Assembly: GCA_977017645.1 (NCBI GenBank)
Contig: OZ360226.1
Span: 41,168,001-41,232,000 of the forward strand
Direction: 5' to 3'
DNA from: Torpedo marmorata
Lineage: Eukaryota
Length of the DNA stretch: 64,000 nucleotides
The position numbers and the translations under genes are program-made. Positions within the stretch are counted from its first letter, which is position 1. Every line of letters begins with the position of its first letter. Below are positions 17,529 through 64,000 of the stretch, piece by piece. A model generated the notes under the pieces. That model was given only the letters and a program-made list of their open reading frames with translations, made no database searches and was not told the DNA's origin.

Positions 17529-17730
17529 TCTCAGAGGCGTGTTACATTTCACCTCCCCGATGGCTCCCAGGAAAGCTGCAGTGATAGTGGTCTAGGAGAC
17601 CATGAGCCGGTAAATGGTGGCCTGCTGATCTCACACCCTCTCCCTCTGGTTCAGCCGCAGGACGAGTTCTACGAGCAGGCTTCCCCAGACAAGAGGACCG
17701 AGGCCGATGGCAATTCTGACCCGAACTCTA
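17529..17730 (+). CDS. pcdh9: Protocadherin-9 internal coding exon (cytoplasmic domain with CM3/RRVTF and CM1)
   Basis: Polypyrimidine tract + AG (17527-28); 202 bp translating to [67 protein letters not shown] + 1 nt; then a GTAAGT donor. Nearly identical to the mammalian PCDH9 penultimate exon as I recall it. Not in the ORF track. Confidence 0.97.
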
Positions 17731-18764
17731 GTAAGTGACCACTTCTTCCTCTTCCAGACATTGGTGCTGTACACTCGAAACTTCACTCAACCAGGGACCT
17801 CATTGGTCTTTTCTTTAGTCCTGCCAAAGGTTGCAAGGTCAGTTCTTGTTGCCTCCCTTCTTTGATTTGAATGTATTCCCAGGTGACATGTGGAGCCACA
17901 GGTCAGATTGCTTACTACAGTGCAAATTTTTATATCCTCTCCTTCTATGTAGTATATAGGCAAGGAGACTTGTGCTGTCTCCATTATGGTGCAGTTCCAA
18001 ACTCTATATGCTCCTGGCATTTGGCAACGGTTGGGTTGGGACTGGTGCTTGGTTGTGGGGATGGGTTAATTCGGGAGATGGCAAAACTGACTATCATTCT
18101 CTCTGCTGATTTTTCCACAACTTTTCCTGTTCACATCTCCAGTAACTGGGTATGATACTACAAGTTTAAGCATTCAGTGAATTCCCCCTTACAAATGTAA
18201 TTTGATGAGAGAGCAGAAAGAGATGGTATGGCTATTTATCTTGGACAGGATCACTGATGCCAATTTTCCATTCACTGAGATATGCTGACTTCATTGGATG
18301 TTGACTGGGTTTCTTTACACCATGATGGTTTCTTATGAGATATAACCTAATCTTCTGTAATCTGATCCATTGCATCATCTTATGATTATTTATAGAGCAG
18401 ATCATCAATGAGATGCTTACAAATATTATTTTGGTGCCTCTTTAAACCTATTTGTGAGCATCTTATGTCATTACATTTGTATGATCTGCCTGCTGAATTT
18501 TAATTTTAGAATTTCTGCATAATTTGAATTTAGATCATACATCAGTGCTTTACAATGTAGTATCTTAAAGGAACCAATACTTGTATTTGTGGGAGAAACA
18601 GATTGCTAACTGGAACAGCAGAGTCTATGGATTAATTTGCTTCCTATTTTGCATTCGGCTGATGAAATTAGGATTCTAAAACCCCTAGGTGCTTGATAAA
18701 CAAAGAGTGAAGGATTACTGGGTTGGATGGGACTGTGGGGTTGAACTCACATTCATATCAGCCA

Positions 18765-21649: not shown

Positions 21650-24550
21650 GAATTGATTTCTTGCCATGTTTCTCTTTGACCGTTGCATGAAGTTATATCC
21701 TAAAGTATTAAAATTGTTTTCTGTTTTACAGTGTACTTGTCTTCATCAATTAATATCATGTACAGAGTCTCTACAGGTACCTGCAACACACTTATAGGAT
21801 GATTTGTTTTGATATACAGAATATGAACTTCAGAGATTTTAAGTTGCTTCATAAGTACCTTCAGGAGCCCCTGAGATTTTATTGAGATTTCATTGGTTGG
21901 CAGGGAAAAGAAAAAAAACATATTCCATTGCTTGAAAATGCTTTTGATTATAAATTTGTTGTAATGATCCAGCTCAATTACATATATTAAATTTCCTGCT
22001 CCCAACCCAAGTAGTGCAAAGATTTGCCTGTAGTTTCCTCTAAAATGACCTGGGGAATGCCTACTTCCTGATGACATGACCAGTTAATGTGTCCTTCTGC
22101 CCAGAGAGCATTGTATTGGAGTGGAGATGAAGAGGCAGACACACATTGAGCTGAGGAAAATTAATGTTGACGTTATTTTTGCGATAAATTATTGGTGAGG
22201 TATAGAATTTGTGGGAAATGGGAAATCTTTGGCACCAGCAGTTGGACTTTTCCTGGTCATGTTTAGCTATGGTGTGTATCTTCATTCTATCTATTGCAGC
22301 AAGGTGTTGTGGCCTGAACCTGACTGAATAAGCCCTGAGTATAGCACTTTAGTGTTGCCTATCTTGTAGTGTCTCACTTCTGAGTCAGAAAGAAACTTAT
22401 GAGTGCAAATCCCACTTAGTATGCTTAATCATTAAAATCAAGATTGATGCTGTCTGTTGCACATAATTTTCAGTGATACAATTTCCTGAGCCCTCTTCAG
22501 CTGGACATAAAAAAATTCCCCTGTCCTCCAGTTTGAAAGAGAATGGAGACATTATTCCCAGCATGCTGTCAAATGTTTATCCCTCCGATGACATTATTGT
22601 GACAGACAGCGGTACAATTTCATGCACTATTTTCTGCATGAGCTCATGATAGATTTTTATTGTATTACTTTTGATCTCTGCTTCTGAAATTTGCTTGCCT
22701 GGATTTTAAATCTAAGATGAATATGAATGGTTTAGCACATTGTGCATTCAACATGCAAAAGCGGGCACAAATATCTCCACCAATCTGGCTCTTCTCGCAT
22801 GGGAACTCCACTTCATTGGTTGTAAATATTTTGGGCCATTCTAAAATTCTGGAAGGCATGGTTCAAGTAGAGAATTTGCTTATTTTGTTCAATGTTTCCA
22901 TCTCACACTCCAATTTTCCTTGTGGCCTCTGAATGAGATGATCCGATTGGTGTCAATAAATGATGAACTATGATTGAATTTTCTTGTGGTTTTGTACTCA
23001 CGAACCACATAGATGTACAGCTGACAGCCAAGATCGAACAACTACTTCTGTGCCACGGATGGTATGCTAATCTACAGCAACACCTTGTATCTGACATATC
23101 ATATATTTTATGAGTGCTGTCAAATGAGGGTTAAGTTTTAGGTTTTATTTAATTCCTTCTTCCCACAGTAAGATTGACTTATTGTCTATGAACATTCTTG
23201 GAACCTGTTCTTTTCAGATTGAATATTGATTGATATCTCACCAAAGAGTTTTGTTTCATTATCTGTGGACAACAGTGTGTAGCTTCTGTGGCAATACTCT
23301 TATTCCCATGTTTGTCTTTGCCTTCATATTTGATTTATAAATCCACAGAGATCACTTTACTCTCTAACAATCACAATCCGTGCAGTATCAGTCAAGATTG
23401 TACAGGTTGAATACAAGCTCCCAGGGTTAAGTCTTGAAGTCAGCAGATATTGTGGTGTCTGATATGTCATGTTAACTCGTGAGCCAGATGCCAACAATGC
23501 AGCCTGGCCGAAGTGTGTCAGTGAGTTGCTGTGGTCCATAACTGTTTGACCATTGGCCAAGATCTACAAATGCAACAGACATCGAGTTGACATTATACAG
23601 GAGCTCACACAAAAGCTGACAAATTCAGGGCCAGGTCTGAGTTGAACTTGATTGGGGATGAGTGCATTAAATTGGAGAACAGGAAAGAGATATTCCAGAT
23701 GCAAACAAGTGAATGGTGACAGGCCTGTGATCACAGGACTGGCTTGTGGGATGAGGGTTGGTTCAGGAGATAGGAACCTAGGGGTGGGGTCAGGGTTCTC
23801 AGACAATAAATACTCAGGAGCTAGTGGGTGTGGGAAATTATTGAGCAAGTGTTGCAAATGTAGGGTTGGTGGAGATGGTGTACAGCAGAAGTCCGATCAA
23901 AATAAGAATGTATGAAAGGAATGTACTTTTGTCAAGTTCTAGAGCCTGGTTGGGAGGATAGCTTTAAATTGGATTCCCAACAAGCAAGGAGTGCCAATGA
24001 AACACATGGAGCAATAGTTGGACATTCTCTGAAATTAGTATAAATTTATATCAGGCTCTTTAGCCCATGACCAGCACCTTGTTGTTGTGTTGTTGATGAT
24101 CTTGATCCTTGACCACTTACTGTCTCTGAAGAGATTTTCTTTTTCTTTTCTTTCCTTTATCTCCTTTCTTCTTTTGCAAGATGGTGCTTGAGTGGAATGC
24201 AAAAGAAAGCTTTTCATTGTATCTCAATACACGTGACGATAATACATAAATCGAAATCTATTGCTCATCACTCTTTCTCGAGTCAGACCATGGCATCTTG
24301 TCTTCAGTATGGCGATGTGTACAAAGATGACTGATTAGACCTACCTTTCAAATTGGTGACAGAGGTGCAGGGATTTTTTGGCATCAGTGGTTCTTGTTTT
24401 TTTGAGATTCTTTTTTCCTCTTTGCTTCCTCCATTCAAGCTTCCTCATATAAATGAGCACCACAATTTTTTGTGGGTATGCCGAGCAGGATGATCCAGTG
24501 CTTGTTGTTTCTCATAGTATGTGTCAACGTTGAAATGCTTCAGGGATGTT
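21650..24550 (-). pseudogene. Possible very ancient Gypsy-like pol relic
   Basis: Short ORF pieces in the expected order: AALLASGSRVN (protease-like LLDSGS, about 23500) and GGDICARFCMLN / FILDLKS (RT-like, about 22700-22790). Weak, by-eye similarity only. Confidence 0.3.
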
Positions 24551-56573: not shown

Positions 56574-58165
56574 CAGTGGTTCTTAACCCTTTTCCCTACT
56601 TGCACCCTTTGCAAAGCACCAAGTAGTTCTCACACCCCTGTCCCCACTGTCATGAAAGAATAATAACATTATCATGGCTATCAATAACAGATTCATCATG
56701 GTTTTACATTTATTTATATTTTACAAATTTACAAATTTGGCAACTAACTGATTCACTACAATACCAAGGTAACTTCAAATTAGTAATTTTTTTATTCCAT
56801 TTGCTAGTACTTTGCATGGTGTGTTGCAAGAAATTGTGTTTGTGCACCAAGCTCAGTGACTTTGTTGCTGTTGTTTGTTCTCTATGATGGTATGGGGAAC
56901 CTCGGCGTCTTGCAGCTGAGTGCTATTCACATGTCGTGCTGAGCGTCCAACTGATTTCTGCACTTGGTTTTGATATGAAGCAGACACGAAAATCCAGTTT
57001 CACACAGATACGTGGTCGCAAAAGGCACTAGCACAGCGAGAGCCTTCCTAGCTAGTACAGGAAATGTTTCCAGCTGAGACGCCCAAAAGTGCTCCAGATG
57101 ACCCTCGGTGAACTCCATTTGGATTCCATGGTTGCTTCTCAAATCGTTGAGATCTTCTTTGACGTCACTGTCATCATCAATATCCTCCAAATTTATCCGG
57201 AAAAGATGCCTGATCCAGTTATCACACGCTTGCAGCTCTGCACACGAGAAGTAACCATCGAATGAAGTTTGCAGCATTTGAAGATGTTCAATAATAGTTG
57301 AAACAAAGACAGGTTGCAAGGAAGCATCCTCAGTGACTGTTCCTTCAAGGGATGGAAAATTCACCAAATTTCCCTTCATTACACGCCTAATCCATAAAGC
57401 AAGTTTTTCTTTGAATGCAACCAGCTTCTCGCTTGCAGTCACAATGGTGAGCCTTTTTCCCTGCAGAGAGCGATTGAGCTCATTGAGTGCTGTGAACACA
57501 TCAGCCAAATAGGCAAGCATCTGAACAAACTCAGGAGAATCAAAATATTCAGCTATGTCTTGTCGCTGTTCACGGAGAAACTGCTTAATTTCCTCTCGCA
57601 ATTCAAACACACGGGATAATACACAACCACGTGATAACCATCTTACTTCTGTGTGGTACAAAATCACAGTATATTCTTGACCCATTTCTTCGCAAAGCAA
57701 CTGAAACAGTCGATGATTCAAAACCAAGAAACGGTATATAGCCAAACCAAGTTTACATACTTAAAAACAGTCACAGGAGATCTCACTACAGTGCACGTCA
57801 ACACTCCTACTCGCAGACCAGTCTACACCCCATGCTGGAACAACAGGAAATGACTCCAATACCTTTTTGCAGACTATTGAAACATGAATCCGCCACCACG
57901 ATAACTCCGCCCCATCGCCGACAAGCACATACATGTACTCGCCTCTTATCTCTCGTTCTCCTTTGCACGCTACAAAACTTAATATACCCATCTATTACAT
58001 CCGCTCTTGTTTCAGAGCATAATATTTATTTATGTGGTCAATTGCATCATAAAAGTGACAAAATAAATATAATTTTTCTCCACATCCAAAAGATCAACCA
58101 TGTTTGAGTACAACTTACTCGCACCCCTAACAGACCTGTCTCGCACCCCTAGTTAAGCACCCCTG
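56574..58165 (-). mobile_element. Internally deleted hAT (Buster/Charlie-like) DNA transposon
   Basis: TIRs cagtggttcttaac / gttaagcacccctg; 8-bp TSD tcatagct at 56566-56573 and 58166-58173; subterminal gcaccc repeats. Confidence 0.95.
56927..57745 (-). pseudogene. C-terminal half of a hAT transposase (ZBED8/SCAND3-like family)
   Basis: HTEVRWLSRG, LAYLADVF..LNELN.SLQG, and LVPFATTYLCETGFS in the dimerisation domain; the N-terminal half is absent. Confidence 0.9.
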
Positions 58166-61230: not shown

Positions 61231-62071
61231 AGAATTATATAGAATTATCTCGACAGGTGTTAATGATACAATGCAACAATTGTTATAAATCTTGTGTGGA
61301 ATAACGTCTATCTGTTTCTTTACACATCAGAGAACAATACTGTACACTCTTTTCTTGACATGCCACAGGAGGAAAAAAACTGAGCACAATTTAATGCCCA
61401 ATCAATGAATATCACAAAATAAGCTATCCATCTCAATTATTATCTCTGACACATATACATTGTCACCTGGCACATGTTCACGTGAGGAAGATTAGAGTTT
61501 ATATAGTGAGAATATTTTTATGAACAAGCAGCTTGGGAGGTTTTACTGATTTAAAGATAAAGACAAGTTGTTGGCAATTGTCTGTGAATGGTTGTTCACC
61601 TAAAATTGTTTGGACATGAATTGTTTTGGAATATAATGATATAAATATTACTTTCTTATTATATCATATTATCTATGATATTTTCATATTATATATGATA
61701 ATATCATATTATCCATTATTAACTGGAGGTTGGGTTTGAACATAACCTGAACAGGGTGATGCATAATTCTTTCTCAGCTACTGATAACTAGAATGTGCTG
61801 GGATATTTGGATGCATATCCTGGTCACCACAATTCCTAAAACTGCCCATAATCTGATGTCCAGCCAAACTAAATTAGCAATGCCATTCAGAAGCCACAAG
61901 GTTGACAGGTGTGGATAATGAAAACAGTTTTCTGTAGATAATTAAATCAGTGATGCATTTAGAATGCAGCTTTAATAATTGACATTTAGTACCTTAATTT
62001 CCAAAGGGAAGCAACTTGACCTTTGCAAATGACTTTTCTTTCCACTCCGCACAGGCGGAAAGCTGACGAAA

Positions 62072-62465
62072 ATGGCGTTCACAATAGGCAAGCGGCAGAA
62101 GCCTACGTTCTCCATGTTGGCTACATGCATGCTTGTGAAACAGTTCTTAAAATTACAAAGATTATTCCTGGCCACAAAATCCAAATTGCCTGGTAGTCAA
62201 AGGCATCGCCGTGGCTGCAACCTTACAGGTGCCAAAGTCAACAAAGTTTCCAAACTAAGCCGAGCAGTTAAGGGCTTTCGAAAGCGTATCAATGACTTAT
62301 GGCTTGACGCTCGAGGAAAAGGCACATTTGACAAAAAGAGAGGGGCAGTCCAACACACAGATGTGGCAAAGGACATGATCCTAACATGGGAGGAAGAGAA
62401 AGTGACCCCGATAGTCCACCTTGTGCAACATGGACCTGATGCGTCCTGTGACTCCAGTGACTCTG
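62072..62465 (+). CDS. Myb/SANT-like (Harbinger ORF2 / MSANTD-NAIF1-like) protein, predicted coding exon 1
   Basis: aaaATGG Kozak context; KRQKPTFS..LV..LF..KVNKVS..R..RKRINDL..ARGK..LTWEEEKV follows the Myb_DNA-bind_5-type pattern; donor CTG|GTGAGT at 62465/62466, phase 1. Confidence 0.75.
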
Positions 62466-62698
62466 GTGAGTGTACATTGTTTTGTCAAACCCATCATTGC
62501 TTGCCTCGACCTTGGCTAACCATTAAGCATGCATTACAATTATTATGTGAATGATATTTTCAAAGCATATGTAAGTGGTTTTGCTCTGTAATTGAATGCA
62601 AGCTGCCTTGTGTCCAAAGCTCTGCTGCAATCCAATTCTTCAGTTTCTGGATCACCCTTCATCAGTTCAGCCGAATTTTTGTTCTTTTATCTCTTTAG

Positions 62699-63456
62699 AT
62701 GAGTACTGCAATTCAGGACACACAGGACCAAAGCAGCATCAAATCACTGTGATACTGGAGGAGAAGGTATCAGCCCAGACTCAAGCACTTGGAATGGTGA
62801 AGCAAGGTACAGAGACTGATGAGGTTCCACAAGGTTCATGTGAGCAATGTAGAGAAGACTCTGCAGGTGGACAATGGAAATCAGCCTCTTACTTGAAAGT
62901 GCCCCCCTCGGAGCAGTCCAGACACCAAGGGGCACATCAGCCAGAGGCAATGAGAGCTGCCCCTTCTTCTGTTCCACCAAATTCTCATAACACACATGAG
63001 GGGGAGCTGTGCCCCTTATGTCGCAGGTTAGATACTTTGGTGAGCACTGTGCAGCGTGGATTCAACCACATGCACAGGGACATCAACACATTGCAAAATG
63101 CCTCACAGTATCGCGGGGCACGGATGTCTCAGAATGTTATGTCTCTGGTTGGTGCCATGCATACACTGGTGAGGCTGCACCATTTCTCCACCTTGTCCCG
63201 TCGGGATGTTGCTATTCAGACCTCCATTGTGCTGAGAGAGACATGTCAGGGAGAGAATAATGGGGCAGCATCCAATGACCCCCCAACTGCCTCCACTGAG
63301 ACAGAGGTGACACCCACTAATAATGTCCAGCCAGTTAGTAACACAGCTGCACCCGAAGACACAGTGGTTGAAGTATCAATCGATCCTGATGGTGACTCTG
63401 CTGAGAGTATGTCCATTGAAGAATCCTCTCTAAACTCCTCAGACAATGACTGGTGA
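62699..63456 (+). CDS. Myb/SANT-like protein, predicted coding exon 2 (disordered region, helical segment, acidic tail)
   Basis: tttttgttcttttatctctttAG acceptor, phase-compatible (G|AT=Asp) with exon 1. Joined CDS is 394+758=1152 nt = 383 aa + stop, with no internal stop. Confidence 0.7.
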
Positions 63457-64000
63457 AGTCATTAGACCGATAATGAATCGACATTGCATTGATTAGAATT
63501 TATATACTTTCTCTTTCTTACTGTACGGTTAGATTTAAAGTTACATTTTTTCCAACAGTTCCAGGAATTTGTATGTTAGATTAAAATGATGCATGCAAAA
63601 AATTACATGGATTTAAATTTAGGGTTAGCTACAAAGTAATGAACACATTGTCCTATATCATGTATTTAATCAAAAAATTGTCTTCACTTATCTGTATTAT
63701 TTGGAATTCTTCATAAGTGTTTTCCACTTCCATAATTAATGTTGTTTCATATAAAAGGAGAATACATGTTATTCATCTTGTGCCATTGTCTGCTGTTTGT
63801 TTGTTGTTGGAAAAGTTGGTTGTGTTCTTCTGTTTCCCATCTTTACCTTGCATGGTGTGGAATAAATATTGTGTCTCCACCATTCTTTGTTCTGTGTATG
63901 CTTTTCATGCCCAAGGTATTTCCCATCTGTCCAAGTTTTACTCTAGCCTGACTTGGCAGAGAGGTCAGAGATCTCCAGAATTCTCCATCACATGTCTTCC

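Follow-up and report, generated by a model that had tools for sequence, protein, structure and literature searches.

A probable domesticated Harbinger-type Myb gene in the last pcdh9 intron of Torpedo marmorata, spliced as an alternative protocadherin tail

The pcdh9 locus and the structure of the gene

The window analysed here, a stretch of 64 000 nucleotides of the Torpedo marmorata genome to which all plain positions refer, covers part of the protocadherin gene pcdh9 and harbours a two-exon gene encoding a Myb/SANT-like domain. The pcdh9 exons and this gene are all on the + strand, from the large pcdh9 exon at C31:40.50 Mb to the last pcdh9 exon approximately 347 kb past the gene, and the introns flanking the gene are of phase 1. 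The upstream fusion partner of the gene is a pcdh9 cytoplasmic exon (17529..17730, +; RRVTF ... NSDPNS), which matches shark PCDH9 at 95% (tblastn) and ends at a phase-1 donor (GTAAGT at 17731). It is followed by a conserved 45-nt symmetric phase-1 cassette exon (21732..21776, +) with AG/GT boundaries and an open frame, which is present in many fusion models and the peptide of which displays 71% identity to that of a Hemitrygon model. An internal acceptor at 17655 would remove the RRVTF motif from pcdh9, as in several database isoforms. An earlier note on this DNA, made from the sequence alone, had described the gene as nested in a pcdh9 intron; its location in the last pcdh9 intron, on the same strand, was borne out, but the gene is not merely nested, as its exons are also alternative 3′ exons of pcdh9.

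The two segments delineated in that note (62072–62465 and 62699–63456) join into a frame of 383 amino acids with no internal stops, and the GT–AG intron between them (62466..62698, +; 233 nt) is skipped in contigs from three of the four sequencing runs that were aligned (X2, X3 and X6). The strong Kozak context of the ATG at 62072 (A at −3, G at +4) and the downstream signals, ATTAAA at 63580 and AATAAA at 63861, were likewise confirmed; the ATG is invariant among all of the orthologues aligned, and both signals fall within a 3′ UTR (63457..63877, +), the contigs reaching 63877. What had been missed is a splice acceptor: exon A (62055..62465, +; 411 nt, symmetric, phase 1) starts at 62055, with the ATG 17 nt downstream, and is joined to the pcdh9 exon, such that it comprises the acceptor, the ATG, the Myb/SANT-like domain and an LTWEEEKV segment. 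The coding part of exon B (62699..63456, +) has a phase-1 acceptor, which some models connect straight to pcdh9, and ends with the stop codon at 63454–63456. The raised CpG content ascribed to the gene holds for exon A only, with an observed/expected ratio of 0.60 (reached by 16 of 155 equal-sized windows), and not for the whole gene, the ratio of which (0.31) compares with a median of 0.29 and is reached by 21 of 46 windows.

Splicing onto pcdh9

Contigs from four sequencing runs, which are only guessed to be RNA and come without a DNA-run control, were aligned to 61600–64000; two of the runs, X2 and X3, belong to one study, of a relative with approximately 94% identity. The X3 contig carries at its 5′ end 29 nt corresponding to the end of the pcdh9 exon (17702–17730, with one mismatch), enters the gene at 62055, lacks the 233-nt intron and extends as far as 63637; this 44-kb junction between pcdh9 and exon A is seen directly in one contig (X3) among the four runs. 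The X2 contig begins unspliced at 61981 and crosses the acceptor at 62055, which fits either a stand-alone transcript or intron retention. The 5′ extension thus covered (61981..62054, +) may represent the 5′ UTR of an independent transcript or else retained intron, the first nucleotide of a contig being no proof of a start site.

A search with the exon A peptide retrieved ten proteins among 630 candidates, namely nine NCBI ‘protocadherin-9’ isoforms from rays and sharks and one Heptranchias protein, a stand-alone model of 391 amino acids; the closest match (87%) comes from an electric ray, Narcine bancroftii. The join between pcdh9 and exon A is found in NCBI models from nine species (those of Mobula being without the membrane part), and a direct join between pcdh9 and exon B, with exon A skipped, in models from six species, adding Amblyraja. 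Fusion models are present in ten of the 14 shark and ray species, the other four having stand-alone, canonical or short models only, in a set that was collected through clusters of fusion matches and in which the RNA evidence for the NCBI models is not visible. These database models describe three forms of the fusion, in which exons A and B replace the last pcdh9 exon, exon B does so alone, or exon A and part of exon B rejoin the last exon. The third form is that of catshark models, which exit exon B at an internal donor and return in frame to the last pcdh9 exon; the matching site in T. marmorata (62857..62872, +; GT at 62867) is a candidate donor. All three junction forms, when checked in the window sequence, are stop-free, and the acceptor, the frame and the peptide preceding the ATG (GK-L/Q-T/V-K/E-M) are the same in nine species. 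It is highly probable that the gene and its fusion to pcdh9 are both real. No account of this pcdh9-intron locus was found in the open-access literature.

The Myb/SANT domain and its decay in rays

The decayed Myb/SANT domain of exon A (amino acids 9–85; 62096..62326, +), which is of the PF13873 trihelix type, was delimited using profiles, the Atlas and predicted helices. The Myb/SANT assignment made in the earlier note received no Pfam support from the window exons themselves, which match no Pfam family (exon A at E values of up to 5), but was upheld by three shark orthologues, those of Heptranchias, Stegostoma and Chiloscyllium, which score 24.6, 25.2 and 24.2 bits, respectively, against PF13873 (Myb_DNA-bind_5), the curated cut-off of which is 21.7. 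The same scan gave no match for the orthologues from S. canicula, Hemitrygon and Narcine (three of six proteins being above the cut-off), and the window protein is absent among the 11 PF13873 matches in the genome. A profile of ten unrelated Myb domains from the T. marmorata genome scores the sharks at 41–51 bits and the window at 23 bits, and in the Atlas exon A falls among PF13873 clusters, at 0.92. Supplied with a Myb-domain alignment, AlphaFold predicted helices at residues 15–34, 42–60 and 66–89, and the modelled domain is closest in Foldseek to the DNA-binding domains of GT-1 (E = 0.37) and Zeste, the E values of 0.37 or above being weak.

The substitution of the usual Trp positions, already recognized in the earlier note, was verified in the alignment: in the window, Cys stands in place of the helix-2 Trp, and the helix-3 aromatic residue is Ile in all orthologues. 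The helix-2 position is occupied by Trp in ten of ten other aligned Myb domains of the genome and in three of four shark orthologues, its loss being seen in the rays (Cys) and in S. canicula. The orthologues form one clade in the domain tree (support 100/99) with a long stem, human NAIF1 and MSANTD1–4 not being part of this tree, and the ray stems measure 0.31 and 0.17, compared with 0.03–0.11 for the shark tips. Relative to X3, dN/dS amounts to 0.64 for exon A (26 differences, 18 nonsynonymous and eight synonymous), counts that are small and make neutrality there possible, and to 0.9 for the Myb part (12 and four, again small counts). Among seven taxa, 29 of the 77 positions of the Myb domain and 25 of the 101 positions of the linker are invariant. 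As judged from these sequences, the Myb domain is real in sharks and decayed in rays, in which sequence-specific DNA binding is likely to have been weakened or lost.

The C-terminal helix and the DVAIQT motif

In the same number of taxa, 63 of the 80 positions spanning residues 233–312 are invariant. This region contains an amphipathic helix (amino acids 236–298; 63010..63198, +), which is predicted to form a coiled coil and is delineated by conservation, modelling and hydrophobic periodicity. AlphaFold modelled the whole Heptranchias orthologue with a mean pLDDT of 42.5, values near 70 being reached by the helix alone, which takes the form of a single 59-residue helix (238–296); its hydrophobic period of 3.63 was reached by none of 2000 shuffles. 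A PDB sequence search with the module profile gave no matches, an Atlas search with the helix was uninformative (best score 0.75) and a homodimer prediction run without an alignment returned no usable answer (score 0.02).

The helix is followed by RRDVAIQTS (63199..63225, +), a candidate LC8/DYNLL-type site on grounds of conservation and motif match, which is invariant in the seven taxa and has one A>G change in S. torazame. According to the available text of PMC3078936, there are LC8/DYNLL clients that bear a TQT-type motif beside a coiled coil; DVAIQT, in a segment predicted to be disordered, agrees with this motif at four of six defined positions, D(−4), I(−1), Q(0) and T(+1), but leaves K(−3) and D/E(+2) unmatched, and the paralogues described below have VQS, LQS or LQR instead. 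The eight LC8 matches in the genome include no intact single-piece LC8. An intronless dynein light chain (LC8-like) copy at C2:118,953,351–118,953,602, with one internal TGA, is likely to be a processed pseudogene. That the helix, rather than DNA binding, is the selected part appears to be quite probable; the further detail of helix oligomerization and LC8 binding is advanced tentatively.

Paralogous helix exons in SORBS2 and SHANK

Searches of the genome with exon B returned its own match and two weak paralogues, on C57 and C2, with 27–30% protein identity, these counts being lower bounds. Against 1.84 billion representatives, a profile search gave 11 matches, five of which are strong (four proteins from elasmobranchs and an unnamed one from Logan); a helix-only profile gave 33 matches among 7999 scored candidates, all elasmobranch except for one unnamed protein. 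A Pfam scan of ten paralogous helix proteins retrieved no families. The paralogous helices are conserved across sharks and rays, at 63 of 72 (five proteins) and 47 of 72 (eight proteins) positions, and stand-alone models exist for both paralogues. A fourth member of the helix family was noted in Heterodontus francisci (XP_067909349.1), with no match of its own in the T. marmorata genome.

The C2 paralogue (C2:63,072,988–63,076,544, −) lies on the same strand as its host, a SORBS2-like gene, within the final intron, which is of phase 1, with the donor at 63,076,439, the helix-exon acceptor at 63,074,031 and the canonical last exon at 63,071,453. SORBS2 fusion models were found for Narcine, Pristis and two Scyliorhinus species (four species; 18 of 24 models, in a biased set), and these spliced models cut short the last SH3 domain and gain the helix. 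The C57 paralogue (C57:50,902,866–50,908,505, +) is also on the same strand as its host, in the phase-1 intron following the PDZ exon of a SHANK gene, identified by its best PDB match, SHANK3; the PDZ exon ends at 50,902,974, the acceptor lies 4.8 kb further on at 50,907,753 and the next exon is at approximately 50,948,897. Fusion to SHANK is represented by one ab initio catshark model (GCB69792.1), and the RefSeq models of the C57 copy stand alone. In a search for Myb remnants upstream of the helix exons, the SHANK copy ranked at the top of 78 windows, although weakly (3.0 bits versus 1.9 for the best control), which may indicate a frameshifted remnant; the SORBS2 copy did not rank.

All three of the helix-exon copies found in the genome lie on the same strand as their hosts and in phase-1 introns, and are for this reason placed for in-frame capture. 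Approximately 0.3 of introns are of phase 1; with this share, and with random strand and phase, such an arrangement of three copies (n = 3) would be expected by chance in approximately 0.3% of cases. Since long neural introns are large insertion targets, the choice of hosts could itself be partly due to chance.

The main alternative to a functional fusion is that the functional unit is a stand-alone nested nuclear gene with its own promoter, encoding the Myb domain and the helix, and that the pcdh9 chimeras result from leaky in-frame splicing. The strong-context ATG that is invariant in the aligned orthologues, the X2 contig that is unspliced from 61981 and the free-standing models for Heptranchias and both paralogues are what such a gene would be expected to display. 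Leaky splicing, however, sits poorly with an acceptor, a frame and a pre-ATG peptide that are identical in nine species, with the several in-frame forms, including exon A skipping and rejoining of the last exon, and with the same-strand phase-1 placement of three of three copies, and the decay of the Myb domain would not be expected for a nuclear DNA-binding role. This explanation is unlikely, but deserves to be kept in mind.

Copy number and origin

The genomic copy number, a check proposed in the earlier note, was found to be one for the 2.1-kb DNA and one for exon A in the 6.2-Gb genome, both being lower bounds, and the gene is single copy, intact and at the same locus across sharks and rays. 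The suggestion of a lineage-specific domesticated gene stands as far as domestication is concerned, given the single copy, the shark and ray orthologues, the PF13873 matches in three sharks and the splicing, but the gene is not narrowly lineage-specific. A near-length search with the Heptranchias protein retrieved only the protein itself among 8000 scored candidates, and no strong non-elasmobranch match to the gene was obtained in protein searches.

The earlier note had found no Harbinger transposase in the window, and tblastn gave none there either. The proposal of half a Harbinger element extending past 64000 had to be abandoned: none of four intact transposase ORFs matched by tblastn in the window and the 60 kb downstream (124 kb), in a search in which all six positive-control loci were matched. 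The reported lack of flanking TIRs was also reproduced, since exact inverted 13-mer matches amount to 30 words at eight scattered sites, none of them near both sides of the gene, over a span from 7 kb upstream to 20 kb downstream in which decayed TIRs would escape. Elsewhere in the genome Harbinger-type transposases are abundant and mostly broken (150 scored out of 2804 candidates), and no Myb match was found beside ten transposase loci. We infer a Harbinger origin indirectly, because no Harbinger element with this Myb gene was found. A 277-aa open stretch at 56930–57760 (−) with a weak match to a hAT dimerization domain (Pfam E = 0.019, below the cut-off) is a hAT remnant unrelated to the gene.

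The gene could instead be a dispersed duplicate of an already domesticated host Myb gene, such as a NAIF1-like one, and not derive directly from a transposon. An alignment with an Anolis ‘NAIF1-like’ protein covers the Myb domain, with an hhalign probability of 91%, and weakly the helix (6.6 bits versus 5.0 for the best of 300 shuffles), and the donor element was not found. The three copies bear introns, however, and reside in unlinked host introns, which would be better accommodated by DNA transposition than by retrocopying; the genome contains many broken Harbinger-type transposases, and the orthologues are not joined with the NAIF1-like pair in the tree. Descent from a host gene is accordingly rated as improbable.

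A probable alternative tail for protocadherin-9

In mammals, PCDH9 undergoes cleavage and an NLS takes its tail into the nucleus, as described in the available text of PMC12890670 and PMC10865395, and the same basic NLS stretch is present in T. marmorata pcdh9; for this reason, the fusion tail would be expected to reach the nucleus. The fusion might then function mainly as a Notch-like membrane-tethered transcription factor, the cleaved PCDH9 tail of which binds DNA through the Myb domain. In addition to the cleavage and the conserved NLS, the shark domains that exceed the PF13873 cut-off on short branches (0.03–0.11) and the predicted trihelix, with GT-1 and Zeste as best folds at weak E values (0.37 or worse), would be compatible with such a role. 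It is opposed by the loss of the Trp in rays and S. canicula, the long ray stems, the dN/dS of 0.9, the models of six species in which exon A is skipped and the paralogues, in which the helix is kept but no more than a remnant of the Myb domain, and must be regarded as very improbable. An ordinary or half Harbinger transposon copy, however plentiful Harbinger-type transposase remnants are in the genome, is refuted by copy number and conservation (a single copy, no transposase in 124 kb, no close inverted repeat, and a position and an intact frame that sharks and rays share) and its likelihood is negligible.

The explanation that we prefer, and hold to be probable, is that of a domesticated Harbinger-type Myb gene in the last pcdh9 intron that is spliced as an alternative tail with an assembly helix. 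A two-exon Harbinger-type element encoding the Myb domain and the helix would have entered phase-1 introns of pcdh9, SORBS2 and a SHANK gene before the shark–ray split, and its own phase-1 splice acceptors would have let each host take up the helix exon. In pcdh9, a tail comprising the helix and, optionally, the Myb domain would take the place of the last exon; the helix, possibly clamped by LC8 at the adjoining motif, is predicted to oligomerize or cluster the PCDH9 tail; the chimeric tail, once released by cleavage, would move to the nucleus. A stand-alone 383-amino-acid product from the conserved ATG is likely to coexist with the fusion. The best reading of the loci is that a Harbinger-type gene was captured recurrently by synaptic genes.

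nArgBP2 (SORBS2), SAPAP and SHANK have reportedly been described as a postsynaptic triad. A speculative extension, with little likelihood of being correct, is that genes of the excitatory postsynapse (PCDH9, SORBS2/nArgBP2 and SHANK) took up one element three times, thereby sharing a coiled-coil handle for co-assembly, with PCDH9 providing a cleavage-released messenger from the membrane to the nucleus.

The genes known so far to have arisen by transposon capture mostly yield transcription factors. In the present case a likely transposon-derived module appears to rewrite a neural adhesion receptor's cytoplasmic tail and to have been kept since before the shark–ray split, with constraint on the usually ignored C-terminal helix rather than on the DNA-binding domain. 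The same-phase paralogous helix exons in SORBS2 and SHANK suggest that one element was recruited into synaptic scaffolds repeatedly, and the locus may represent a shark- and ray-specific piece of synapse evolution that is masked in databases by plain ‘protocadherin-9 isoform’ labels.

Relation to known systems

The available text on TSNARE1 describes a syntaxin-like SNARE domain to which a Harbinger Myb-like domain is fused, the Myb exon being alternatively included and, according to the authors, perhaps a relic or an influence on nuclear partitioning (bioRxiv 10.1101/2021.02.09.430442). The pcdh9 fusion is similar to TSNARE1, as far as that text goes, in that a Harbinger-type Myb exon is fused to a membrane-related neural host protein. 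It differs in that the fusion exons supply the C-terminal tail of a single-pass cadherin that is intact and keeps its canonical isoform, and in that conservation falls on the helix encoded by the second exon; the arrangement was found in elasmobranchs only and recurs in SORBS2 and possibly in SHANK.

Host–transposase fusions, in which an intronic transposon gene is captured in frame by alternative splicing, were surveyed in tetrapods by Cosby et al. (bioRxiv 10.1101/2020.05.07.082677), the available text of which deals with transposase domains and mostly with KRAB fusions; the words ‘Harbinger’, ‘cadherin’, ‘transmembrane’ and ‘shark’ do not occur in its main text as available. The pcdh9 fusion resembles these cases but is not a strict member of the class, because the captured part comprises a Myb-like domain together with a helix, without a DDE domain. 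Unlike the fusions described there, a noncatalytic helper would have been captured and the hosts are synaptic adhesion and scaffold proteins.

NAIF1 and MSANTD1–4 are single-copy syntenic Myb/SANT trihelix genes that are credited to Harbinger Myb-like proteins in the available text of Etchegaray et al. (2022; PMC9392472), the main text of which, in that form, contains neither ‘shark’ nor ‘protocadherin’. Being single copy, syntenic and of the Myb/SANT trihelix type, the pcdh9-intron gene is of the same kind as the genes portrayed there. NAIF1 and MSANTD1–4 are, as presented in that work, stand-alone genes of jawed vertebrates found from human proteins, whereas the pcdh9-intron gene has no strong non-elasmobranch match, a domain that is decayed in rays and exons that are spliced to its host.

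Further Harbinger-related sequences were observed elsewhere in the T. marmorata genome. Among the many broken copies there are four intact stop-free Harbinger-type transposase ORFs (frames of 394–453 amino acids), which are candidates for domesticated genes of the HARBI1-like type and might act as partners of Myb-like proteins. The 11 PF13873 matches are all stop-free within the match, and several of them cluster together and with a Pristiophorus protein bearing repeated Myb-like units; these clustered matches may represent further domestications in sharks and rays.
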